64,000 bases of DNA. Source: Acutalibacteraceae bacterium. Lineage in GTDB: Bacteria; Bacillota; Clostridia; Oscillospirales; Acutalibacteraceae. Shown piece by piece: positions 1,771 through 62,268 of the stretch (position 1 is its first letter; every line of letters starts with the position of its first letter). The notes beneath the pieces were generated by a model that did no database searches, was not told where the DNA came from, and was given only the letters and a program-made list of their open reading frames with translations. A program made the position numbers and the translations under genes. The stretch lies in assembly GCA_045656545.1 (NCBI GenBank), contig JAZORF010000002.1:11072-75071 (forward strand), in the 5' to 3' direction.

Positions 1771-2724
1771 ATGATTACTTCCGAGCAGGCTTTGAATTAT
1801 GAGTTCCAAAAAGCTGGTATGAACGGTTACCGCGCAGCAGAGGTTGACGAATTCATTTCTTCTGTGGCAGAAACCTTATCTTTTCAAGAAAGAAAAGTTC
1901 GCGATATGCAGCGCATTATTGACGAACTTAAAAAGAACGAGACTATTATACAGACTACTCTCGTTAATGCACAAAAGTTGGCTATGCAGTTAACTGATGA
2001 GGCAAAGCAAAATGCTGAGCAAACCTTGGCAGAGGCACAGTCAAAAGCACAGACTGTTACCGCTGATGCCGACGCAAAGGCAGAGGCAGTCCTTGCCGAT
2101 GCTATTGCAAAGTCAAAGCAACTTACTGCAGATGCCGAGGCAGCCTTTGAAAAAGCAAATGCGGAGGCAGAGGAAAAGGCTAACCAGATGCTTGAAGAGG
2201 TGCGCCGCATTGCTGCAGAGGAGTCTGCAAAACTGCAGGCAGAGATTGAGGCACAGCGCGCCCTTTACGATGCCCTTAAAACAGAGGTATCCGCTTTCCG
2301 CGCCGATGTGCTTGAGCGCTACAAGGCACAGGTTACTCTTATCAAAGATTTGCCTGATTTGATGCCCGCAGTTGAGGTTGCTCCCGTTCAGCAGGAAATC
2401 GTTTACGAAGTTCCCGCAAAGGAAGAAACACCTGTTGAAACTCCCGAAATCGTCGAGGAAGAGGATGACTTGCCCGTTGCACAAATTTCCTTTGTTGACA
2501 ACACTCCTGCAGAGGAGCCTACTCAGGCAAGCAGTCCTTTGCTTAAACTTTTTGACGATATGCAAGAAAATGAGGCACAGGCGGCCGCCGCAGTTGAAGA
2601 GGTGGCATCTCTTACCGAGAATGCACAACCTGCAAAGAGCGGATTTACCGTAATTTTTGACGATGATGACGACAAGGACGATACCTTCGGCGGCAGAATT
2701 CAAATTGGCGAAGACAATAACTAA
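1771..2724 (+). CDS. divIVA: DivIVA domain protein with long coiled-coil and acidic tail
   Basis: N-terminal DivIVA motif 'FQKAGMNGYRAAEVDEFI'. Ala/Glu/Lys-rich coiled-coil region. Confidence 0.9.
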   Translation: MITSEQALNYEFQKAGMNGYRAAEVDEFISSVAETLSFQERKVRDMQRIIDELKKNETIIQTTLVNAQKLAMQLTDEAKQNAEQTLAEAQSKAQTVTADADAKAEAVLADAIAKSKQLTADAEAAFEKANAEAEEKANQMLEEVRRIAAEESAKLQAEIEAQRALYDALKTEVSAFRADVLERYKAQVTLIKDLPDLMPAVEVAPVQQEIVYEVPAKEETPVETPEIVEEEDDLPVAQISFVDNTPAEEPTQASSPLLKLFDDMQENEAQAAAAVEEVASLTENAQPAKSGFTVIFDDDDDKDDTFGGRIQIGEDNN

Positions 2725-2743
2725 TTGATTGGAGATATAACAA

Positions 2744-5533
2744 ATGGCACAGGATTATAACCAGACACTCAACCTGCTTAATACCGAGTTCCCAATGCGC
2801 GCAGGTTTGCCCGAGCGTGAGCCTGAGGCACTTAAGAAGTGGTATTCAGAGGAACTTTACGAGCAGATTATGAAACGTAACGAGGGCAAGCCTCTTTACA
2901 CCTTGCACGATGGCCCTCCATATGCAAACGGAAAAATTCACCTTGGCACTGCACTTAACAAAATCCTCAAAGACTTTGTTGTGCGCTACAAGAATATGAC
3001 CGGATTTAAGGCGCCTTTTGTGCCCGGATACGATACTCACGGTCTGCCTACCGAACTTAAGGCTCGTAAGGCAGCAGGTATGAAGTCTTCTGAGCAGGTT
3101 TCACCTCTTGAACTGCGTAAACTTTGCCGCGAGTTTGCTCTTGGCTTTGTTGATGACCAGCGCGACCAGTTTAAGCGTTTGGGCGTTTTGGGCGAATGGG
3201 ATAACCCTTATTTGACCCTTAAACCCGAGTTTGTTGCCCGTCAGGTTGAAATATTCGGCGATATGGCTCAAAAGGGCTATATCTACAAGGGACTTAAGCC
3301 TGTTTATTGGTGCCCTGAGTGTCAGACCGCTCTTGCCGAGGCAGAAATCGAATATGCAGAGGATCCTTGCCATTCTATCTATGTTAAGTTCAAGGTTAGC
3401 GACGATATGGGCAAACTTGCTCAGTATGGCTGTGACCTTGACAAAACCTATTTCGTAATCTGGACCACTACTACTTGGACTTTGCCCGGCAACGTGGCAA
3501 TCTGTGTTGGTCCCAACTATGATTACGGCATTTATAAAGCAGGCGACGAGTTCTATATTATGGCTGAAGAACTTGCAGGCAAATCCTTTGCCGCCGCAGG
3601 AATTGAGCAGTATGAACTTATCGCAACCCTTATGGGCAAAGAACTTGAACTTATGTCTGCTCAGCACCCCTTCCTTGACCGCGAAAGTCTTGTTATCGTG
3701 GGTGACCACGTAACTCTTGAAAGCGGTACAGGTTGCGTTCACACCGCCCCCGGTTTTGGTGTTGACGACTTTGAGGTTTGCCGCAAATATCCTCAGGTGC
3801 CAATGATTGTATCGGTTGATGCAAAGGGTGTTATGACTGAGGAGGCAGGCCAGTTTGAAGGCCTTACCACCGACGAAGCAAACAAGAGCATTGCAATGCA
3901 TCTTGACCAGACAGGCAACTTGTTTGCTCTTGCAAAGATTATCCACCAGTATCCTCACTGCTGGCGTTGTAAGTCACCCATTCTTTTCCGTGCCACCAAA
4001 CAGTGCTTCTGCTCAATCAAGGCTTTCTCTGATGAGGCTCTTGAAGCAATCAAGACTGTTAAGTGGATTCCCGGTTGGGGTGAAGACCGCATTTCAGGTA
4101 TGGTCCGTGACCGTTCTGACTGGTGTATTTCCCGTCAGCGTACTTGGGGCGTGCCTATTCCTCTGTTCTACTGTGAGGATTGCGGCGAGCAGATTATATC
4201 TGAGCAAACCATCGCAAAGGTTGCCGATATGTTCCGCAAAGAAGGCGCAGATGCTTGGTATGCTCATAGCGCCACTGAACTGTTACCCGAGGGTACAGTC
4301 TGCAAATGCGGTTGCAACCGTTTCACTAAAGAAACTGATATTATGGACGTTTGGTTTGACTCAGGCTCAACCCACGCCGCCGTTCTTGACGAGCGTGACT
4401 ATCTTGGCAATCCTGCCGACCTTTATCTTGAGGGTGCCGACCAGTATCGTGGTTGGTTCCAGTCAAGCCTTCTTACCAGTGTTGCTACCAAGGGTATTGC
4501 TCCTTATAAGGCAGTTGTAACTCACGGTTGGGTAGTTGACGGCGAAGGCAAAAAGATGTCTAAGTCTATCGGCAACACTATCGAGCCTGAAGAAATCGTA
4601 AATCAGTACGGTGCCGATATCTTGCGCTTGTGGGTTGCATCAAGTGACTATCACGCCGATATCCGCATTTCAAAGGATATTCTTAAGCAACTTTCAGAGG
4701 CATACCGTAAAATCCGTAATACCGCCCGCTTCATTTTGGGTAACATTCACGATTTCAATCCTGATACCGATGCAGTTGAAATCAGCAAACTTGAGCCTAT
4801 GGATAAATGGGCACTTGCTCGCCTTAACGGACTTATTGAAAAGTGCCGCGAAGCATATGAGAATTTCGAGTATCACATCATATTCCATGCCATTCACAAC
4901 TTCTGCGTTGTTGATATGTCAAACTTCTATCTTGATGTTATCAAAGACAGACTTTATGTAGAGCGTGCAGACAGTGATACCCGCCGTGCTGCACAAACTG
5001 CAATGTATCGTATTCTTGATAATCTTACACTTCTTCTTGCACCTATTATCGCATTTACTGCAGAGGAGATTTGGAACTTTATGCCACACGATGCAAATCG
5101 TGATGCAGGCAGTGTAATGTTTAACGATTTCCCCACTGCAACCAACCTTGATGTTGACGATAACTTTATGCAAGAGTGGGATAAACTTCACGCTGTACGC
5201 GACGATGTTAAAAAGGCAATCGAAATTGCCCGTAAAGACAAGATTATCGGCTCATCACTTGATGCAAAGGTAACCGTATACGCAGACGGTGAGTGGTACG
5301 AGCTTTTGAACGATACTGCAAATCCCCTTACCGCACTCTTTATCACCTCTACCGTTGAGTTGGTCAAGGGCGAGGGCGGTGACTTCAAGGGTGATAACGT
5401 TGGTGTTACCGTATCAAAAGCAGAGGGCTGCAAGTGTGCTCGTTGCTGGTCATACGAGGAGTATGTTGGCAGTGATAGTACATATCCCGATTTGTGCCGC
5501 CGTTGTGCAAAGATTATTGCCGAAATGAATTGA
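2744..5533 (+). CDS. ileS: Isoleucine--tRNA ligase
   Basis: 929 aa. Class I aaRS motifs 'PYANGKIHLGT' and 'KMSKSIGN'. C-terminal Zn-finger CxxC..CxxC. Confidence 0.97.
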   Translation: MAQDYNQTLNLLNTEFPMRAGLPEREPEALKKWYSEELYEQIMKRNEGKPLYTLHDGPPYANGKIHLGTALNKILKDFVVRYKNMTGFKAPFVPGYDTHGLPTELKARKAAGMKSSEQVSPLELRKLCREFALGFVDDQRDQFKRLGVLGEWDNPYLTLKPEFVARQVEIFGDMAQKGYIYKGLKPVYWCPECQTALAEAEIEYAEDPCHSIYVKFKVSDDMGKLAQYGCDLDKTYFVIWTTTTWTLPGNVAICVGPNYDYGIYKAGDEFYIMAEELAGKSFAAAGIEQYELIATLMGKELELMSAQHPFLDRESLVIVGDHVTLESGTGCVHTAPGFGVDDFEVCRKYPQVPMIVSVDAKGVMTEEAGQFEGLTTDEANKSIAMHLDQTGNLFALAKIIHQYPHCWRCKSPILFRATKQCFCSIKAFSDEALEAIKTVKWIPGWGEDRISGMVRDRSDWCISRQRTWGVPIPLFYCEDCGEQIISEQTIAKVADMFRKEGADAWYAHSATELLPEGTVCKCGCNRFTKETDIMDVWFDSGSTHAAVLDERDYLGNPADLYLEGADQYRGWFQSSLLTSVATKGIAPYKAVVTHGWVVDGEGKKMSKSIGNTIEPEEIVNQYGADILRLWVASSDYHADIRISKDILKQLSEAYRKIRNTARFILGNIHDFNPDTDAVEISKLEPMDKWALARLNGLIEKCREAYENFEYHIIFHAIHNFCVVDMSNFYLDVIKDRLYVERADSDTRRAAQTAMYRILDNLTLLLAPIIAFTAEEIWNFMPHDANRDAGSVMFNDFPTATNLDVDDNFMQEWDKLHAVRDDVKKAIEIARKDKIIGSSLDAKVTVYADGEWYELLNDTANPLTALFITSTVELVKGEGGDFKGDNVGVTVSKAEGCKCARCWSYEEYVGSDSTYPDLCRRCAKIIAEMN

Positions 5534-5555: not shown

Positions 5556-6122
5556 TTGACCAAGCAAAAAAATGCCATTGATTTTATAGGTTGGCTTAAG
5601 TCACGAAAGGTTGAACTTATTGCTTTGTTGGTATCTGCCTTGTTGGTGGTTATTGACCAGATAACTAAACTTTTGGTTGAAAGCAACTTTCAGACTGTGG
5701 GTGAAACCCTGCCTGTTATAAAAGGTGTGCTTAATTTTACCTATATCCGCAATGACGGTGCGGTGTTTGGCTCCCTTTCAGGCAAACCCTATATTTTTAA
5801 CACTATTACTGTTATAATTGTCGTTTTAGGTGTTGCGGCTCTGCTTATGGGCAAAATCAAGGGCAAATGGTTGATTTGGACAGCCTCTTTAGTTATCGGC
5901 GGCGGTGTTGGTAATATGATTGACCGCTTCCGACTGAAATATGTTATTGATTTTATTGATGTTAAATTGTTTGGCAAACTGTGGGTTTGGGTGTTTAACT
6001 TTGCCGACTGCTGTGTGGTTGTTGGTTGCATAATGCTTATAATCTACTTTATTGCCGATACCGTAAATGACGTTAAAAAATCAAAAGCACAAAAGGCATC
6101 AAAGGGTGACAATGATGCCTGA
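5556..6122 (+). CDS. lspA: Signal peptidase II (lipoprotein signal peptidase)
   Basis: TTG start 9 nt after GGAGG. Motifs 'IRNDGAVFG' and 'FNFADCCVVVG'. Four hydrophobic segments. Confidence 0.9.
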   Translation: MTKQKNAIDFIGWLKSRKVELIALLVSALLVVIDQITKLLVESNFQTVGETLPVIKGVLNFTYIRNDGAVFGSLSGKPYIFNTITVIIVVLGVAALLMGKIKGKWLIWTASLVIGGGVGNMIDRFRLKYVIDFIDVKLFGKLWVWVFNFADCCVVVGCIMLIIYFIADTVNDVKKSKAQKASKGDNDA

Positions 6123-7026
6123 GTTAGAGTTTATTTGTACCGAAAAATGTGACAGGGTGGATGCTTTTTTAGCATCCACAGGTCAGTTTACACGCTCTGC
6201 CGCCGCCAAACTTTGTGACGATGGTAGGGTGCTAATAAACGGGAAGCAGGCAAAGAAAAAGTCCTCACTCTTACAGGGTGACAAGGTAACTGTTCAGGTG
6301 CCTGCACCTGTTGATTCCACCGCAAAACCTCAAGAAATCCCTCTTAATATTGTTTATGAGGATGACGATTTGCTTGTAGTTAACAAACCGAAGGGAATGG
6401 TTGTTCATCCCGCTCCCGGCAATGCCGACGGAACTTTGGTAAATGCCTTGCTTGCTCACTGCGGTGACAGTCTTTCGGGCATAAACGGAGTTATACGCCC
6501 CGGTATAGTCCACCGCATTGACAAAGATACAAGCGGTCTGCTTATAGTGGCAAAGAATGACCGCGCCCACACTCATTTGGCCGCACAGATAAAGGAGCAT
6601 TCCTTTACGCGCGAGTATGAGGCAGTGGTCTACGGCAATGTTAAAGAGGATGAGGGTATTGTTGATGCGCCAATTGGCAGGCATCCCACCAAGCGCAAGC
6701 AAATGGCGGTCACAACCAAAGCTTCCCGTAATGCCGTTACCCATTGGCGCGTAGTTAACCGTTACGGCAAATTCACCCACCTTGCTTTGCGACTTGAGAC
6801 GGGACGCACCCATCAGATAAGGGTGCATATGTCATACATAGGCCACGCGGTAGCAGGGGATTCGGTTTACGGCCCTAAAAAAGTTATTGAGCGGCTGGGC
6901 GGTCAGTGTCTGCACGCTAAAAAGATTGGTTTTATCCATCCTGACGGCAGATATCTTGAATTTGACAGTCCGCTACCCGAATATTTTACCTCATTTTTAA
7001 AAGGGTTACAGAATGAAAAAGTTTGA
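6112..7026 (+). CDS. rluD: RluA/RluD-family 23S rRNA pseudouridine synthase
   Basis: ORF 6067..7026 trimmed to ATG 6112, overlapping the lspA end. N-terminal S4 domain; catalytic motif 'HRIDKDTSGLLIVAK'. Confidence 0.9.
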   Translation: MMPELEFICTEKCDRVDAFLASTGQFTRSAAAKLCDDGRVLINGKQAKKKSSLLQGDKVTVQVPAPVDSTAKPQEIPLNIVYEDDDLLVVNKPKGMVVHPAPGNADGTLVNALLAHCGDSLSGINGVIRPGIVHRIDKDTSGLLIVAKNDRAHTHLAAQIKEHSFTREYEAVVYGNVKEDEGIVDAPIGRHPTKRKQMAVTTKASRNAVTHWRVVNRYGKFTHLALRLETGRTHQIRVHMSYIGHAVAGDSVYGPKKVIERLGGQCLHAKKIGFIHPDGRYLEFDSPLPEYFTSFLKGLQNEKV

Positions 7027-8715: not shown

Positions 8716-9660
8716 ATGGCAGAAATCAAAAAGATGGCTACCCGTGACGGCTACGGTCAAGGCCTTATCGAACTTGGCAAAACCCGTGACGATATTATTG
8801 TTATGGACGCTGACCTTGCCGCCGCTACTAAAACAGGCGCATTCAAAAAAGAATTCCCCGAAAACTTCTATAACTGCGGTATCGCAGAGCAAAATATGAT
8901 GTCTATCGCCGCAGGCGTTGCTGCAACAGGTAAGGTTGTATTTGCATCAAGCTTTGCAATGTTTGCCGCAGGCCGTGCCTTTGAGCAGGTTCGCAACTCT
9001 ATCGGCTATCCTCATTTGCCCGTAAATATCGGTGCAACCCATGCAGGTATCTCTGTTGGTGAAGACGGTGCAACCCATCAGTGCTGTGAGGATATTGCTC
9101 TTATGCGCACTATCCCCGGTATGACTATTATCAACCCCGCCGACGCAGTTGAGGCAAAGGCAGCAACTATTGCAGCAGCCGAAATTGACGGTCCTGTATA
9201 TCTCCGTTTTGGCAGACTTGCAGTACCCGTAATTAACGACGACAACTACAAGTTTGAGGTTGGCAAGGGCGTCAATCTTGTTGACGGCACCGATGTTACT
9301 ATCGTTGCAACAGGTCTTATGGTTGAGCGTGCCCTTCAAGCTGCAGATATTCTTAAGGAAGAGGGTATCTCTGCACGAGTAATTAACATCCACACCATCA
9401 AGCCTTTGGATGAAGAGATTATTCTTGACGCTGCTAAGAAGACCGGCGCAATCGTTGTTGCAGAAGAGCATTCTGTTATCGGCGGTCTTGGCAGTGCAGT
9501 GTGCGAATTGCTTGCCGACAAGATGCCTACCCCTGTTAAAAAGGTTGGCGTTGAGGATAAGTTTGGCACCTCAGGTCCTGCACTTGACTTACTTGAGATG
9601 TTTGGTCTTGGCTCAAAGGATATTGTTAAAAAGGCAAAAGAAGTTATTGCAATGAAGTGA
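8716..9660 (+). CDS. tktB: Transketolase, C-terminal (pyrimidine-binding) subunit
   Basis: ORF 8707..9660 trimmed to ATG 8716 after GGAG. 'CGIAEQNMMSIAAG' motif. Confidence 0.92.
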   Translation: MAEIKKMATRDGYGQGLIELGKTRDDIIVMDADLAAATKTGAFKKEFPENFYNCGIAEQNMMSIAAGVAATGKVVFASSFAMFAAGRAFEQVRNSIGYPHLPVNIGATHAGISVGEDGATHQCCEDIALMRTIPGMTIINPADAVEAKAATIAAAEIDGPVYLRFGRLAVPVINDDNYKFEVGKGVNLVDGTDVTIVATGLMVERALQAADILKEEGISARVINIHTIKPLDEEIILDAAKKTGAIVVAEEHSVIGGLGSAVCELLADKMPTPVKKVGVEDKFGTSGPALDLLEMFGLGSKDIVKKAKEVIAMK

Positions 9661-15734: not shown

Positions 15735-16004
15735 ATGAAAGCAGTTATTACAGTTGTTGGTAAGGATACAGTGGGTATTCTGGCAAAGGTATCAAACCTC
15801 TGCGCCGAAAAGAATATAAATATTATTGATGTAACTCAGACAGTTATGCAAGATTTGTTTTGTATGATAATGCTTTGCAATATTGACACAATGACAGGCA
15901 GTTTTTCTGACTTTGTAGATGCCGCTGACGCTATCGGTAAGGAAAATAATCTTAGCGTTCACGTTATGCATGAAGAGATTTTTAACTCTATGCACCGCAT
16001 TTAA
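15735..16004 (+). CDS. ACT-domain protein (UPF0237 family)
   Basis: ORF 15675..16004 trimmed to ATG 15735 after GGAGGT. 'VITVVGKDTVGILAKVS' ACT fold. Paired with a UPF0210 gene. Confidence 0.85.
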   Translation: MKAVITVVGKDTVGILAKVSNLCAEKNINIIDVTQTVMQDLFCMIMLCNIDTMTGSFSDFVDAADAIGKENNLSVHVMHEEIFNSMHRI

Positions 16005-16016
16005 GGGGGACGCATA

Positions 16017-17378
16017 ATGCTTAACACAAAAGATATTCTTGAAACTATTGCAATGATACAAGACGAGCATCTTGATATACGCACCGTAACAATGGGTATA
16101 TCATTGCTTGACTGTATCGACCCTGATATTGATTCTGCCTGCCGCAAGGTTTACGACAAAATCACCCGTTATGCTGAGCGTTTGGTACCCGTTTGTCAGG
16201 ATATTGAAAAGACCTACGGCATTCCCATTATCAATAAGCGTATATCGGTTACTCCTATTGCAATGCTTGCTTCTGCTTGCCCCAATGCCGATTTGACAAA
16301 ATTTGCATTGGCACTTGAAAAGGCGGCTTGCAAGGTTGGTGTTAACTTTATCGGCGGCTACAGTGCCTTGGTGCAAAAGGGCTTTGCTCACGGCGATGCC
16401 GAGCTTATCAACTCCATCCCCGAAGCCTTGGCAATTACCGACCATATCTGTTCATCGGTTAATATTGGCTCCACCAAAGCAGGCATCAATATGGACGCTG
16501 TAGCTATGATGGGTAAGGTTATCCGCCGCACTGCCGAACTTACTGCCGAGCGAGATTGTATCGGCGCCGCAAAATTGGTTGTTTTTTGTAACGCTCCCGA
16601 GGATAATCCCTTTATGGCAGGCGCATTCCACGGTGTCGGCGAGGCTGACTGTGTAATCAACGTTGGCGTTTCAGGCCCCGGCGTAGTTCGTGCCGCTCTT
16701 GCCAAACTTGGCGGCGATGCAAGTATTACCGAGGTTGCCGACCTTATTAAACGTACTGCATTTAAGATTACCCGAATGGGTCAGCTTGTGGCAAAAGAGG
16801 CATCTGCCCGTCTTGGTGTGCCCTTTGGTATTGTTGACCTGTCCCTTGCTCCCACACCTGCAGTTGGTGACTCGGTTGCTCATATTCTTGAAGAAATGGG
16901 CTTGGAGTCATGCGGTGCCTGTGGCACTACCGCTTGCCTTGCACTGCTTAACGATGCCGTCAAAAAGGGTGGCGTAATGGCATCATCCCACGTTGGCGGT
17001 CTGTCGGGTGCATTTATTCCCGTAACCGAGGATGCAGGTATGATTGATGCCGCTCGCAGTGGCGCTCTTACTATTGAAAAACTTGAGGCTATGACTGCCG
17101 TTTGCTCGGTTGGTCTTGATATGATAAATATTCCCGGTGACACTCCCAGCGAGGTTATTTCGGGCATTATTGCCGACGAAGCCGCAATCGGTATGGTTAA
17201 CAGCAAAACCACTGCCGTTCGCCTTATTCCCGCTATCGGTAAGGGTGTGGGCGAAGAGTTATCTTTTGGCGGCCTCCTTGGTGGCGGCCCCGTTATGAAG
17301 GTTAATACCGCATCACCCAAGGTGTTTATAAATCGCGGCGGACGATTGCCTGCCCCCCTCCAAAGCCTTAAAAATTAA
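16017..17378 (+). CDS. UPF0210/DUF711 family protein (PFL-like fold)
   Basis: 453 aa. Conserved N-terminus '[27 protein letters not shown]'. Canonical partner of the ACT gene. Confidence 0.85.
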
Positions 17379-32214: not shown

Positions 32215-32436
32215 TTATTTTTCTTTTTTAAGTTTATCAATGCGTGCAATCATTACCGATGCGTAGTGAATTCCGTGAGCATACTGTGCTTCGCGGATAT
32301 TAGCACCGATGCTTGTGCCACTGCGACCAATTTGGTTTGAAATTATATGTTCCTTGTTTTCTTTTAGGCATTTTACAAGATTTATAATGGAAACAGCAAA
32401 ATCAATTGATAGAACAGATAATTTATCATTACGCAT
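32215..32436 (-). CDS. Four-helix-bundle (23S rRNA intervening-sequence type) protein, C-terminally truncated or diverged
   Basis: ORF trimmed to ATG 32436. 'FAVSIINLVKCLKENKEHIISNQIGRSGTSIGANIREAQ' fits the family N-terminal half. The expected second half (..ALKE..ET.YWL..) is absent. Confidence 0.55.
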   Translation of the reverse strand: MRNDKLSVLSIDFAVSIINLVKCLKENKEHIISNQIGRSGTSIGANIREAQYAHGIHYASVMIARIDKLKKEK

Positions 32437-32487
32437 AACAGCAACAACTTTCCAAATAAAGTATAGCATAAACTTTAAGTCTTTTCA

Positions 32488-32643
32488 ATGAAAAATGAAG
32501 CATTGGCTTCGCCAATATGAAGCGCTTGCTAACGCTCGTATGAAGCGAAGCGCACATTTTTTCGTTATTTATGTTGCGAAGCAACACTTCATAGCCGAAG
32601 GCGACTTCATTCTTCATTAGCACCGTAAGGTGCGCTTCATTGC
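32488..32643 (-). repeat. Periodic hexamer / mini-hairpin inverted-repeat element, copy R1 (candidate structured ncRNA)
   Basis: On the + strand, ATGAAG at 32495, 32517, 32540 (plus ATGAA at 32488), then CTTCAT at 32587, 32605, 32612, 32635. Spacers form small hairpins. Homologous to 39121-39290 when read on the minus strand, i.e. downstream of tRNA-fMet. Confidence 0.6.
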
Positions 32644-32647
32644 AACC

Positions 32648-32684
32648 AAAAAAATAGCAGCCGACAAAGTCGACTGCATTTTTT
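32648..32684 (-). terminator. Terminator of tRNA-fMet (bidirectional)
   Basis: Stem GCAGCCGAC/GTCGACTGC (one mismatch, a G-U pair on the transcribed minus strand) flanked by A7 and T7. Confidence 0.75.
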
Positions 32685-32761
<77 letters not shown>

Positions 32762-38813: not shown

Positions 38814-38989
38814 AGAGGTGTCGCCAAGCGGTAAGGCACGGGATTTTGATTCCCGCATCCGTAGGTTCGGCGTAGCAGTTGAGTTGCAAAGCAAATCAAC
38901 TGTGAAGTCTCGAGCAAGGCAAGTTTTTTCGGACACCGCTTAGAGCGGTCGAAAAAACGCCTGCGCAGAGTACCCTGCCACCTCTGCCA
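38814..38989 (+). pseudogene. tRNA-Gln (UUG) copy interrupted in the T-loop by a 104-nt structured insert
   Basis: 38814-38869 is identical to nt 1-56 of the intact copy at 39008, and 38974-38989 is identical to its last 16 nt. In between, 104 nt replace the three T-loop bases AAT. Confidence 0.6.
38870..38973 (+). other. Structured insert within the tRNA-Gln T-loop
   Basis: Closing helix GGCG (38869-38872) / CGCC (38958-38961). Hairpin CAGTTGA (38876-38882) / TCAACTG (38896-38902). Long hairpin TTTTTTCG-gac-ACCGC-ttaga-GCGGT-CGAAAAAA (38924-38957). Confidence 0.55.
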
Positions 38990-39007
38990 TTTGAATTTAA
39001 TAAATAT

Positions 39008-39082
39008 AGAGGTGTCGCCAAGCGGTAAGGCACGGGATTTTGATTCCCGCATCCGTAGGTTCGAATCCTGCCACCTCTGCCA
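39008..39082 (+). tRNA. tRNA-Gln (UUG), intact copy
   Basis: AGAGGTGTCGCCAAGCGGTAAGGCACGGGATTTTGATTCCCGCATCCGTAGGTTCGAATCCTGCCACCTCTGCCA. Cloverleaf folds by eye; anticodon TTG. Confidence 0.9.
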
Positions 39083-39083
39083 G

Positions 39084-39118
39084 AAAAAACTCCTTGAGAA
39101 ATTCTCAAGGAGTTTTTT
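39084..39118 (+). terminator. Intrinsic terminator of the tRNA operon
   Basis: A6-CTCCTTGAGAA-a-TTCTCAAGGAG-T6. Confidence 0.88.
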
Positions 39119-39120
39119 CA

Positions 39121-39290
39121 ATGATGTTTGCCTTACGGCAAATGATGTCGCTTGCGCTAATGATGACGGCTTTGTCTAATGATGTCGCTTCGCTAATGTT
39201 TTGTGGAAAATATCGCATCATTTTCGGCGTAGCCCAATACATCATATTTGCGAATCAAATGCATCATATCGCCGTAATGCGATGCATCAT
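39121..39290 (+). repeat. Periodic hexamer / mini-hairpin inverted-repeat element, copy R2 (candidate structured ncRNA)
   Basis: ATGATG at 39121, 39142, 39160, 39179, then CATCAT at 39216, 39240, 39262, 39285. Spacers form hairpins (39128-39141, 39246-39260, 39268-39283). Confidence 0.65.
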
Positions 39291-39347
39291 TTAAATATTT
39301 TTAGAATTGTTCATCTTTTCAAAAAATAAGATTAGTTACTCCTTCGC

Positions 39348-39390
39348 AACTAACAACCCTAACTGCTGAGTTAAGGTTGTTAGTTTTTTA
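39348..39390 (+). terminator. Strong orphan intrinsic terminator downstream of R2
   Basis: 17-bp stem AACTAACAACCCTAACT/AGTTAAGGTTGTTAGTT (one mismatch) with a GCTG loop, followed by T-rich TTTTTA. No ORF precedes it on the + strand. Confidence 0.8.
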
Positions 39391-39397
39391 TTCCATA

Positions 39398-39426
39398 TTG
39401 ATTTTATTTTCAAAAAGTGTTATAAT
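39398..39426 (+). promoter_or_regulatory. Sigma-A-type promoter for the nfnAB-like operon
   Basis: TTGATT, 17-nt spacer, TATAAT. Confidence 0.55.
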
Positions 39427-50910: not shown

Positions 50911-51696
50911 TTATACTGTTAAATCAACAAATTCGGCACCCAAATCGGTTGCCCATTTATACCATTTTTCAAACTCAAAACAGATATTATCGGCAGAATG
51001 ACTGTCACTGTTTAAAACAAACTTGCCACCCTTGTTCGCAATATAAGTTATCATATCTTTACTTGGGTATGGAGTGTTTCTGTAACCTCTTGAGATAGCA
51101 CCGGTGTTGATTTCAAAAGGTTTGCCGTATGGCAAAAGTCTGTCTACCGCCTTTTGCCAAGCATCAACATAACGGGGATGATTACTGTCAAATATGCAGT
51201 CATCTTCGTTGAATTTTGACACCAGGTCAAAGTGACCGATAATATCAGCGCTCGTAGCCTCAACCACCTTTGAAACCAAGTCAAAATACCCCTCGCAAAA
51301 AGAGAATATGTCACCGTCAAAATATTCATTAACGACCTTTTCAAGATAATCTCTGCTTCGGTCAACATCAAAATAGATACCGTCTTTTTTAACATAATGA
51401 ACTGAGCCGATAACATAGTCAAAATCTGTAATAGGATTGCCACCAAAATAATCCTGCTCAACACCGCACAAAACCTTAATTTTATCCTTGTGCTTCTCTT
51501 TTAGTGCAGTGATTTCTTCGTAATACAACTTAGAATTTTCAAGGCTCATACAAAAACTGCCGTCAAAATCGGTGTAACCGTGACCTGAAAAACCTATGGC
51601 GGTAAGCCCCATATTTATCGCCGACTGCACTATTTCTTCCGGGGAGTTTTTGCCGTCGCAATAATGGGTGTGGATGTGATAATCCCACTTAATCAT
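50911..51696 (-). CDS. hisJ: Histidinol-phosphatase, PHP (HisJ/HisK) family
   Basis: 261 aa. PHP motif '[11 protein letters not shown]'. Last gene of the his operon. Confidence 0.88.
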
Positions 51697-61416: not shown

Positions 61417-62268
61417 TTAAACACCTGAATAGGCAGAGAAACCGCCGTCAACGGGAAGCACAACGCCTGTAATAAATCCTGCAGCCTCCTCATTAGCCAA
61501 GAAGAGCAAGCCGCCCTCCAACTCCTCGGTTTTACCGAAACGGCCCATAGGAGTTGCGGCAAGAATTTTGCCTGTACGAGCGGTGGGGGTGCCATCCTCA
61601 TTCCAAAGCAATTTTGCATTTTGCTGGGTAGAGAAGAAGCCGGGAGCAATGGCATTTACTCTGATACCAACCTTTGAAAAGTGAACGGCAAGCCACTGAG
61701 TAAAGTTAGAAATAGCAGCCTTTGCACCTGAATAAGCAGGAATTTTGGTAAGGGGAGTGAATGCGTTCATAGAAGATATGTTGATAATGCTGCAACCCTC
61801 TCTGCCAACCATCTGGCAGGCAAAAGCCTGAGTGGGAATAAGGGTGCCAAGGAAGTTAAGGTTAAACACAAAACCTACACCGTCGGCATCCAAATCAAAG
61901 AAACTTTTGGTATCGGCATCAATATCACCAAGTTCAAAATATTCCTTGTCGGTGGTAGCACGGGGATTGTTACCGCCTGCGCCGTTTACAAGCAAATCGC
62001 AAGGGCCAAAGTCGGCCTCAACTTGCTTTGCAACTTCGGTGCAAATGCTCTTGTCAAGAACGTTGCAAGCATAAGCCTTTGCAATTCCGCCCTCTGCCAC
62101 GATTTCGTCGGCATAGGTTTTTGCGGCGGCTTCATTAAGGTCAATCAGAGCAACCTTTGCGCCGGCACGGGCAAGCACCTTTGCAAAGTATGAGCAAAGC
62201 ACGCCGCCTGCACCTGTAACAACGGCAACCTTGCCTGTAAGATTGGTGTTTAAACAGTTGGTGTTCAT
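61417..62268 (-). CDS. uxuB: SDR-family oxidoreductase, D-mannonate oxidoreductase type
   Basis: 283 aa. 'VAVVTGAGGVLC' and 'YSGAKAA' SDR motifs. Directly downstream of uxuA, as in Bacillus yjmF. Confidence 0.75.
   Translation of the reverse strand: MNTNCLNTNLTGKVAVVTGAGGVLCSYFAKVLARAGAKVALIDLNEAAAKTYADEIVAEGGIAKAYACNVLDKSICTEVAKQVEADFGPCDLLVNGAGGNNPRATTDKEYFELGDIDADTKSFFDLDADGVGFVFNLNFLGTLIPTQAFACQMVGREGCSIINISSMNAFTPLTKIPAYSGAKAAISNFTQWLAVHFSKVGIRVNAIAPGFFSTQQNAKLLWNEDGTPTARTGKILAATPMGRFGKTEELEGGLLFLANEEAAGFITGVVLPVDGGFSAYSGV

Follow-up and report, generated by a model that had tools for sequence, protein, structure and literature searches.

The nearest described systems

Gut-1 (RF01706) dates from 2010 as an 'RNA motif' and has stayed an orphan, linked to no organism, partner or function; Weinberg et al. 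graded it as certainly RNA (Weinberg et al., 2010, PMC2864571). Its consensus consists of three hairpins separated by UGAAA-like words. The sequences flanking the motif in its Stockholm file (BAAZ01025322, BAAZ01000095) show that members follow a tRNA and a terminator and that an inverted arm, with three to four GUGAUAU words answered by four AUAUCAC words, was excluded from the published motif (Weinberg et al., 2010, PMC2864571). Here we describe two elements of this kind, R1 and R2, in a 64,000 nt stretch of DNA from an Acutalibacteraceae bacterium (GenBank assembly GCA_045656545.1, contig JAZORF010000002.1, positions 11,072 to 75,071), referred to below as the window. The family of word arrays to which both belong is linked to genes for a small protein of the PF05635 (23S_rRNA_IVP) family, here IVP, and the repeated words co-vary with particular residues of the linked protein. 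On balance this pattern favours the view that each array is a recognition platform for its IVP. As far as we are aware, neither the IVP link nor the residue-to-base co-variation has been described.

PF05635 and the corresponding TIGR02436 ('four helix bundle protein') form a very common, uncharacterised family. The sole studied member is Avd, which is essential for diversity-generating retroelements and whose resemblance to PF05635 has been noted (PMC10053308). The protein forms a pentamer, a barrel of positive charge 'similar to S23 ribosomal proteins', and contacts a specific RNA element through a dedicated surface (10.1101/2023.10.23.563531). A literature search for PF05635 returned diversity-generating retroelements only, and the terms intervening sequence and four-helix bundle gave no paper. 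The family is also encountered in 23S rRNA intervening sequences with an S23p/IVP open reading frame (ORF), for example in Coxiella, which have been described as selfish (PMC4990558).

R1, R2 and Gut-1

R1 lies on the minus strand at 32488-32643 of the window, downstream of a tRNA-fMet gene and its terminator. The left arm (32572-32641) contains four ATGAAG words (32640-32635, 32617-32612, 32610-32605 and 32592-32587) and three hairpins, GCACC-TTAC-GGTGC (32633-32620), GCC-TTC-GGC (32602-32594) and TGTTGC-TTC-GCAACA (32586-32572). The right arm (32488-32545) has three CTTCAT words (32545-32540, 32522-32517 and 32500-32495), one degenerate word (TTTTCAT, 32494-32488) and one hairpin, ATTGGC-GAA-GCCAAT (32516-32502), and is also present at the loci L208, L219, L174, L150 and L198. 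The centre between the arms (32546-32571) reads TAAATAACGAAAAAATGTGCGCTTCG, and its 'GCGCTTCG' run, right before the first right word, is kept in R1-type copies. The sister element R2, on the plus strand at 39083-39290 (array 39119-39290), follows a tRNA-Gln gene (39008-39082) and is led by a 17-bp terminator hairpin (39083-39119). It has ATGATG words at 39121, 39142, 39160 and 39179 and CATCAT words at 39216, 39240, 39262 and 39285; its hairpins include TTGCC-TTAC-GGCAA and ATTTG-CGAAT-CAAAT, and a nearly identical orthologue exists in L177. With four plus three words and one degenerate word in R1, and four plus four in R2, both elements have the make-up by which we recognise the family: at least three identical RTGAWG words per arm at a period of 17-26 nt and a mirrored second arm. 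A word-agnostic scan found these two arrays and no other in the window.

The preliminary description of this DNA had set out just such word series for R1 and R2 and had named spacer hairpins in each; all of these can be read in the sequence, and the left arm of R1 holds two hairpins more. Its further statement that the two share one layout stands as regards the two-arm plan but not in detail, as R1 has a doubled, hairpin-less word (ATGAAGAATGAAG) and lacks the outermost right hairpin, and several left spacers of R2 make poor hairpins. The lack of a common reading frame is also borne out, R1 yielding MKRTLRC* where R2 has a frame of 57 codons.

When the left arms were compared with Gut-1 in a permissive search, R1 scored 22.6 bits (32562-32642, E = 0.019-0.054) and R2 15.7 bits, against a gathering score of 50; in the window, only tRNA passes an Rfam threshold. 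Aligned to the Gut-1 consensus, R1 shows three consecutive short hairpins, each flanked by a UGA-containing word, and the wider Gut-1 architecture, with its inverted second arm and its placement after a tRNA and terminator, is matched by R1 and R2 alike. Because two-armed RTGAWAT arrays do exceed the gathering score (61.9 bits for L017, 54.3 bits for L305), R1 and R2 are sub-threshold variants of the Gut-1 architecture with a 6-nt word. In kind, then, the family was known before: it is related to Gut-1, with which it shares the gut-Clostridia niche and the three or four short GC hairpins that each follow a (G/A)UGA(A/U)-type word. It differs in that the Rfam model spans the left arm only and in that the words of R1 and R2 have 6 nt (ATGAAG, ATGATG). 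Gut-1 itself has never been given a function or a protein partner, and the IVP link found here applies only to RTGAWG arrays.

Viral contigs gave 0 matches to a pattern specific for R1 and R2 and at least 120 to three GTGAWAT words; roughly 98% of the latter were tandem-repeat noise, with two true arrays among the matches listed. In one viral contig (L017) a Gut-1-type array directly upstream of a TerL-like gene is accompanied, at 5185-5335, by further tandem repeats, GGTAACTTGCC four times and TATCTGC five times; these repeats resemble an iteron or packaging region.

The array family

A unit-specific pattern found 105 loci in genomes, where our own chance estimate gave roughly 17; about 90% are in metagenome-assembled genomes of gut Clostridia, where copies number about 90. 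The earlier proposal of a genuine, conserved, non-coding repeat family is thus upheld by many further copies. The layout of R2, with words at +1, +22, +40 and +59 and at +95, +119, +141 and +164, is conserved in at least 20 species, and that of R1 (+1, +23, +30 and +48; about +92, then +115, +137 and +162), including the doubled word, across many species. Twenty aligned R2-type copies have a mean column identity of 71%. Arms most often contain four words (135 arms), less often three (76) or five (13) and rarely more, so that 224 of 228 hold three to five; the word period is 17-26 nt, falling to 7-8 nt where a hairpin is missing. Paired arms are convergent in 57 cases and divergent in 6. A tRNA 3' end lies within 110 nt of 31 of 57 elements (54%), with 15 tRNA identities represented, and the placement behind other tRNA operons that had been raised for the family is thereby confirmed.

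Nearly two-thirds of the distinct spacers (63% of 239) fold with at least 4 bp. Their stems vary between copies by two-sided changes, one position being occupied by TCGCC/GGCGA, TCACC/GGTGA, TCGGC/GCCGA or TTTGC/GCAAA, and the compensatory hairpin changes first seen between R1 and R2 thus recur in further copies. Few hairpin pairs are G-U, 1.4% when the RTGAWG strand is read and 3.7% for its complement. Loops read on the CWTCAY strand take the form of GNA triloops and GNRA tetraloops (GAA 48, GTAA 32, AAA 15, GTA 11, GCA 10). The GNA triloop is the classic stable mini-hairpin type of DNA, d(GCGAAGC), and is compatible with RNA too. Because the arms are inverted, the canonical loops stand on opposite strands in the two arms, which makes the element symmetric rather than oriented. 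Arrays with a single arm exist, in either orientation relative to the IVP gene, as does a hairpin-less array of contiguous heptads (L004 9615-9642), and one copy, in L190, shows an internal deletion.

Linkage to IVP genes

When all ORFs within 3.5 kb of the arrays were clustered, a single family recurred, that of IVP, a protein of about 117 aa found at 12 of 76 loci. In the reverse direction, a metagenome search with an IVP alignment gave 80 loci, which were pooled with those from genomes. An array, taken as at least four identical words within 330 nt upstream, was present before 76 of the 82 IVP genes with enough upstream sequence (93%). In the commonest arrangement left arm, centre and right arm are followed by a promoter, where there is one, and the IVP gene; in a second the gene stands between the arms with a terminator behind (L294 type, L135), and in a third the commonest order is followed by a further terminator half and left arm (L174, L250, L285). 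A promoter is recognisable behind 29 arrays, in most of which the -35 box begins at -1 to +6 nt relative to the last word. In 16 of 75 IVP-linked arrays the gap to the ATG is too short to hold a promoter. The nearest solved relative of IVP is 2RLD (E = 1e-40), which was deposited with five chains.

R1 has the commonest arrangement. A sigma-70-type promoter (TTGAAA, 17 nt, TG-n-TATACT; 32460-32488, minus strand) abuts its last word, and an equivalent is conserved behind many copies; a promoter scan of R1 and R2 found none inside the array centre. The gene that follows (32215-32436, minus strand) scores 36.4 bits against the Pfam model (cut-off 33.8) and 41.9 bits against TIGR02436 (cut-off 24). 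It is homologous over residues 1-64 only and is thus truncated, being broken after residue 64, while L208, L174, L150 and L219 have intact orthologues of 117 aa at the equivalent position. No IVP gene adjoins R2. R1 is accordingly an array with a decayed partner and R2 an orphan array, and any protein that still binds them must be encoded at another place in the genome.

The stop codon of IVP and the start codon of the gene behind it share an ATGA at L208, L170, L183, L284, L293 and some 15 further IVP loci, and an AAGGAG within the C-terminal codons of IVP precedes this overlap. The downstream genes are mutually unrelated and encode, for instance, an ATPase, a methyltransferase-like protein or membrane proteins; the module may act as a portable promoter and leader, translationally coupled to the next gene. 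The idea that genes behind IVP form defence islands was abandoned, as the cargo (ATPase, glycosidase-like protein, membrane proteins, aldehyde dehydrogenase, methyltransferase) is heterogeneous and has no common theme.

Agreement between arms and co-variation with the protein

The words follow [A/G]TGA[A/T]G, and all four types (ATGAAG, GTGAAG, ATGATG and GTGATG) occur as uniform arrays, which requires that at least one concerted switch has happened repeatedly; recombination is unable to yield this set. In 62 of 70 distinct two-armed elements both arms have the same majority word, allowing for the mirror; in the genome set the association gives a Fisher p = 9e-26, uncorrected for phylogeny. 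The compensatory hexamer switch read from R1 and R2 is to this extent real, but it is no rule of the family: of 49 arrays in the genome set 14 are mixed and 5 discordant, a hybrid with four ATGATG words facing two CATCAT and two CTTCAT is common to four species, and there are the single-arm and hairpin-less arrays.

The word type can be followed on a tree of the IVP proteins. Position 5 of the word (A/T) changes once, at a deep clade split, and position 1 (A/G) about eight times, against about 20 for shuffled labels. A-type words go with the N-terminus M[RK][NE][DN]KL[SA] and G-type words with M[SPA]ESKLR, so that position 1 co-varies with IVP residues 2, 4 and 7, a result replicated in two clades. 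In the TGATG clade Arg7 is found in 6/6 G-type and 0/13 A-type proteins, with residues 2 and 4 split alike, and in the TGAAG clade in 14/18 and 2/27, respectively; overall the N-terminus is associated with the word at Fisher p = 1e-10. Intermediate N-termini (MPENKLK in L261, MQDSKLR in L296) accompany mixed A/G arrays. The split at position 5 coincides exactly with that between the deep IVP clades and with that at residues of the protein body such as Q/E63 and H/Q53. The gene behind R1 conforms, its N-terminus, MRNDKLS, being of the A type that matches ATGAAG words. The pairings of Arg with G and of Asn or Asp with A fit common amino-acid-to-base preferences in protein-DNA recognition.

The codons behind the correlated residues are diverse and synonymous, which places the constraint or selection on the protein and rules out that the 5' coding region pairs with the words or mimics them. 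Simple linkage or recombination cannot account for the pattern in about eight words either, since the array lies upstream of the N-terminus and the N-terminus upstream of the body, and yet position 1 tracks the former and position 5 the latter. The compensatory signal is genuine, and a protein reader that co-evolves with the words most likely explains it better than pairing on its own. Together with the 93% linkage, the residue-to-base co-variation provides a hypothesis that is directly testable.

The array as a probable recognition platform

We consider it somewhat probable, from the sequence patterns set out above, that the array is the recognition or binding platform of its IVP protein. The module, which is dispersed and intergenic in gut Clostridia, consists, in order, of a terminator-type hairpin, usually after a tRNA, a left arm of three to five [A/G]TGA[A/T]G words with a short GC hairpin behind each, a brief centre, the mirrored right arm, often a promoter, and the IVP gene. 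The words would be the recognition sites: residues 2-7 of the N-terminal tail may read position 1, Arg7 going with G and Asp or Asn4 with A, and residues of the body may read position 5. Since the same protein would read both arms, the eight words would stay identical, allowing for the mirror, and would change together when specificity switches; reading of this sort accounts for the uniformity of words within an arm, for the mirror identity of the arms and for the concerted switch between R1- and R2-type arrays. The hairpins would serve to present or to space the words, and one arm of three to five words could engage one five-subunit oligomer, should IVP form one. As to role, we favour a site in cis, acting at the level of DNA, through which IVP may control its own abutting promoter; the array may in addition be the mark of a small cassette that moves horizontally and resides in tRNA trailers. 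What the sequences show is the membership of the family, the link to IVP and the co-variation of protein and word; physical binding, its stoichiometry, DNA rather than RNA as the ligand and a regulatory or selfish role are what we infer from these patterns.

We lean slightly towards DNA as the bound form. Orientation appears not to matter for recognition, the -35 box adjoins the last word, and in R1-type copies the array is outside the IVP transcript; the scarce G-U pairs, the GNA triloops and the hairpin-less version with contiguous heptads point the same way. Word position 1, which evolves by transitions as in RNA helices, speaks for RNA. Several observations weigh against the platform as we have drawn it. 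The 16 arrays without room for a promoter, and the units with IVP between the arms and a terminator behind, which form a single transcription unit with arms and gene co-transcribed, favour RNA, and Avd is known as an RNA-binding partner and not as a DNA operator protein. It is hard to see what short palindromic spacers would do for a protein that binds plain duplex DNA. The co-variation is correlative, with few independent switches beneath it. As many as 64 of the 76 arrays from the genome scan have no IVP gene nearby, so that binding there would be in trans or the copies would be relics, and no IVP-like gene stands beside the Gut-1-type RTGAWAT arrays of L017 and L034. A combined model, in which IVP binding to the words competes with pairing between the arms, is plausible.

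A more general proposition, which we advance tentatively and hold to be rather less assured than the platform itself, is that standalone PF05635 proteins are sequence-specific readers of hairpin-displayed hexamers by a simple, evolvable code, with the tail reading base 1 and the body base 5, and that protein and array jointly make up an unrecognised class of small cassettes, similar to intervening sequences, which colonise the trailers of tRNA and perhaps rRNA operons of gut Firmicutes. If true, this would give a partner and a function to the orphan Gut-1 motif and to a very large uncharacterised protein family, and would hint at how Avd-type proteins choose their nucleic-acid targets. It might also explain the origin of ORF-bearing rRNA intervening sequences. 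Should a programmable small oligomer be the reader of the words, the system might serve as a modular scaffold for nucleic-acid recognition.

Compared with Avd, IVP has the same fold and belongs to the same family, but the arrays have no linked reverse transcriptase, template repeat or variable repeat, and repeated words and sequence-specific co-variation are undescribed for Avd. The 23S rRNA intervening sequences are alike in placing the same protein family in a stable-RNA operon, in being bounded by complementary arms, in their sporadic and horizontally acquired occurrence and in an ORF prone to decay, as in the truncated gene of R1. They differ in that the arrays lie in a tRNA trailer and not within helix 25 or 45 of 23S rRNA, in that the arms are word-hairpin arrays instead of a simple RNase III stem, and in that the ORF is usually outside the arms. 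Iteron and heptad operators resemble the arrays as short direct and inverted words beside promoters, read by a small protein with co-evolving specificity. The omega repressor of pSM19035 binds WATCACW heptads in direct or inverted arrays, and some right-arm words here are CATCAC or ATATCAC, with hairpin-less heptads in L004; however, IVP is a four-helix bundle and not a ribbon-helix-helix protein, and the words are separated by hairpins at a period of 17-26 bp.

A structured RNA as a possible alternative

A rather unlikely alternative, if the strongest of those considered, is that the array acts as a structured RNA, transcribed in the tRNA trailer or in the leader of the IVP mRNA, in which pairing between the words of the two arms produces helices of 6-7 bp, arranged as a ladder from which the spacer hairpins branch. 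Such a fold, with or without bound IVP, could conceivably control processing, stability or translation in the manner of the paired ends of 23S intervening sequences, a role to which we would give equally modest credence. The agreement between arm words in 62 of 70 elements would follow directly, yet pairing alone does not require that the words within one arm be identical, as they are. The substitution pattern is that of an RNA helix, the position-1 switch from A-U to G-C, made about eight times, being passable through G-U and the position-5 transversion having occurred once; on the other hand G-U pairs are very rare, and the common mixed state, with A on the left and C on the right, leaves an A-C mismatch on the IVP-sense strand. 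That the 19 mixed or discordant arrays include hybrids stable across four species, and that single-arm arrays in both orientations and hairpin-less arrays exist, is also difficult to reconcile with a ladder.

Folding itself gives a divided answer. The RNA folds of R1 and R2 are more stable than those of shuffled sequences (z = -4.0 and -3.6), the minimum-free-energy folds make use of word-word pairing, and compensatory changes keep the hairpins. RNAalifold, applied to the 20 R2-type copies, returned a weak consensus fold with an energy of -12.6 and a covariation term of -0.21. The preliminary suggestion of a structured RNA or single-stranded DNA family therefore survives in so far as the family is non-coding and maintains its hairpins, but not as regards a supported global fold; and an RNA form is not established, because G-U pairs are nearly absent and the GNA triloops are of the DNA mini-hairpin type. 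The canonical GNA and GNRA loops, moreover, lie on opposite strands in the two arms. With respect to transcription, the 16 of 75 arrays closest to the ATG must be part of the mRNA, and in L294-type units the arms flank the ORF with a terminator behind; against this, the element contains no promoter, a strong bidirectional terminator separates the tRNA from the array, and in R1-type copies the IVP promoter is downstream of the array. The grading of Gut-1 as certainly RNA (PMC2864571) and the binding of a specific RNA element by Avd add weight to an RNA reading.

Possible mobility and strain comparison

A selfish mobile element resembling an intervening sequence, with the arrays as terminal inverted repeats or attachment sites, IVP as signature cargo and the post-tRNA hairpin as target, seems to us improbable as the full account. 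It is similarly doubtful that units with IVP between the arms are the full element and copies such as R1 and R2, with arms and centre alone, its derivatives, comparable to miniature inverted-repeat transposable elements (MITEs). Mobility of this kind is compatible with the recognition platform and the two are not exclusive.

The evidence for movement is substantial: it comprises presence and absence of arrays, replacement, many tRNA targets, a carried tRNA-end remnant and direct repeats. Orthologous loci in relatives were located through ValS homologues, which place the host in the Acutalibacteraceae (Oscillospirales). The comparison revealed hypervariability rather than conservation. L001 (95% ValS identity) has the same tRNAs and no arrays; relatives at 87-95% identity lack arrays, and in L002 and L003 (87-88%) the locus yielded no tRNA. 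L004 (99%) has arrays at both orthologous sites, but different ones, and between strains sequence identity ends exactly at the tRNA 3' end. Arrays adjoin 15 tRNA identities, some genomes have several copies, one copy away from any tRNA carries a tRNA-fMet 3'-end remnant, and direct repeats of the terminator half and left arm surround IVP or whole units (L174, L142, L250). There are IVP genes with inverted arms on either side, arrays without IVP are more numerous than those linked to it, and relatives of IVP are found within 23S rRNA intervening sequences described as selfish (PMC4990558).

Other observations speak against such an element. No recombinase, transposase, HUH or integrase family is recurrently linked among the ORFs within 3.5 kb of the 76 arrays, and IVP is a helical bundle of 117 aa with no known catalytic motif. 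No target-site duplication was identified, intragenomic copies are not near-identical as young MITEs would be, and in the commonest arrangement IVP is outside both arms. Of transposon-end features, then, inverted arms and units with IVP between them are present, and target-site duplications and linked transposases are not seen. An integrative element with its attachment site at the tRNA was likewise rejected: the window contains no duplicated tRNA end, even with up to 3 mismatches allowed for the 3' end of tRNA-fMet, and no integrase family recurs near the arrays. The arrays resemble REP and BIME repeats (repetitive extragenic palindromes and bacterial interspersed mosaic elements) and MITEs in being small, extragenic, post-terminator and strain-variable, with inverted hairpin units and a short conserved flank. 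They differ from these in that the hairpins have no genome-wide consensus and that no RAYT (REP-associated tyrosine transposase) or other transposase is linked.

The two L004 arrays keep the word core of their site (TGATG or TGAAG) despite all other differences. The one after tRNA-Gln (15905-16190) has three copies of ATATCATCA and three of TGATGATAT, partly divergent, together with the conserved last two units of R2, and the one after tRNA-fMet (9560-9650) has four hairpin-less tandem TCTTCAC words and then GTGAA words. Direct repeats of the terminator hairpin and the start of the left arm are found at L142 2020-2540, where two complete arrays are bounded by three copies of GCATCGCGTAAGCGGTGCTTTTTTCAATG, and in L174 (about 2400-3100), where the IVP gene is bounded by two left arms with the junction inside the terminator loop; these look like tandem or replicative insertion. 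The array-less L001 has, on the minus strand at about 2400-2440, an incomplete second tRNA-fMet 3' end (GGTCAAGTCCCACCCCCGCAACCA), some 240 nt downstream of the intact gene; such a copy marks a past event of integration or excision at tRNA-fMet.

Finally, the arrays might be a functionless by-product, slippage- and palindrome-prone low-complexity DNA piling up in 'safe' post-terminator gaps, as the variable unit number (3 to 6), the hairpins sometimes lost between words, internal deletions (L190) and hybrid arrays might suggest, but the unit order and individual hairpins conserved in at least 20 species, the 93% linkage of the architecture to one gene family, the co-variation of protein and word and the compensatory changes that maintain the palindromes make this very unlikely.

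Surroundings of R1 and R2

The tRNA gene directly upstream of R1 (32685-32761, minus strand; anticodon CAT) was called by ARAGORN and by the Rfam tRNA model (59.6 bits), and is an initiator tRNA because it has the C1xA72 mismatch and three G-C pairs (GGG/CCC) in the anticodon stem. It is followed by a long hairpin of A-tract, GC stem and T-tract, of the bidirectional-terminator type (32642-32691, minus strand), which forms the conserved leading part of the module; nearly all array copies are preceded by the same AAAA-stem-TTTT hairpin. The terminator scan put the stem core at 32677-32657, followed by a T tail. GCAACCAAAAAAA and TTTTTTTGGTTGC pair with each other and enclose the GC stem, and at the base the tRNA 3' end, GCAACCA, pairs with a downstream TGGTTGC.

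Pairing of the tRNA 3' end with the stretch just before the first word is also seen in the R1-type copies L141, L174, L150, L171, L205 and L208, and the distal flank of the terminator co-varies with the tRNA end (GCAACCA/TGGTTGC, GCACCA/TGGTGC, TCACCA/TGGTGA). The L208 copy at about 6120-6190, away from any tRNA, keeps TTGGTTGCA, a remnant of the tRNA-fMet 3' end, together with a re-created complement. This complementarity might have arisen by fold-back copying during insertion, or an extended terminator might have been selected for.

Elsewhere in the window, exact-protein look-ups for two genes gave no match. The word-agnostic scan flagged four other clusters, at 51187-51425 and 62026-62199 of the window, L003 16669-16870 and L004 1000-1114; those at 51187-51425, in L003 and in L004 were read and are not this element. 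Downstream of R2, the promoter (39398-39426) of a PyrK-like gene is preceded at 39340-39390 by another strong hairpin with a T-tract (aactaacaaccctaactgctgagttaaggttgttagtttttt), distinct from the array, where weak, sub-threshold Rfam matches to leader and small RNA families also fall. Just upstream of the intact tRNA-Gln gene (39008-39082) the window contains an extra tRNA-Gln copy (38816-38990), uncalled by ARAGORN, which is split after the T-arm GGTTCG by about 105 nt (gcgtagcag...cgcagagta) and then continues as CCCTGCCACCTCTGCCA; this interrupted copy could be a T-loop insertion or a recombination relic.

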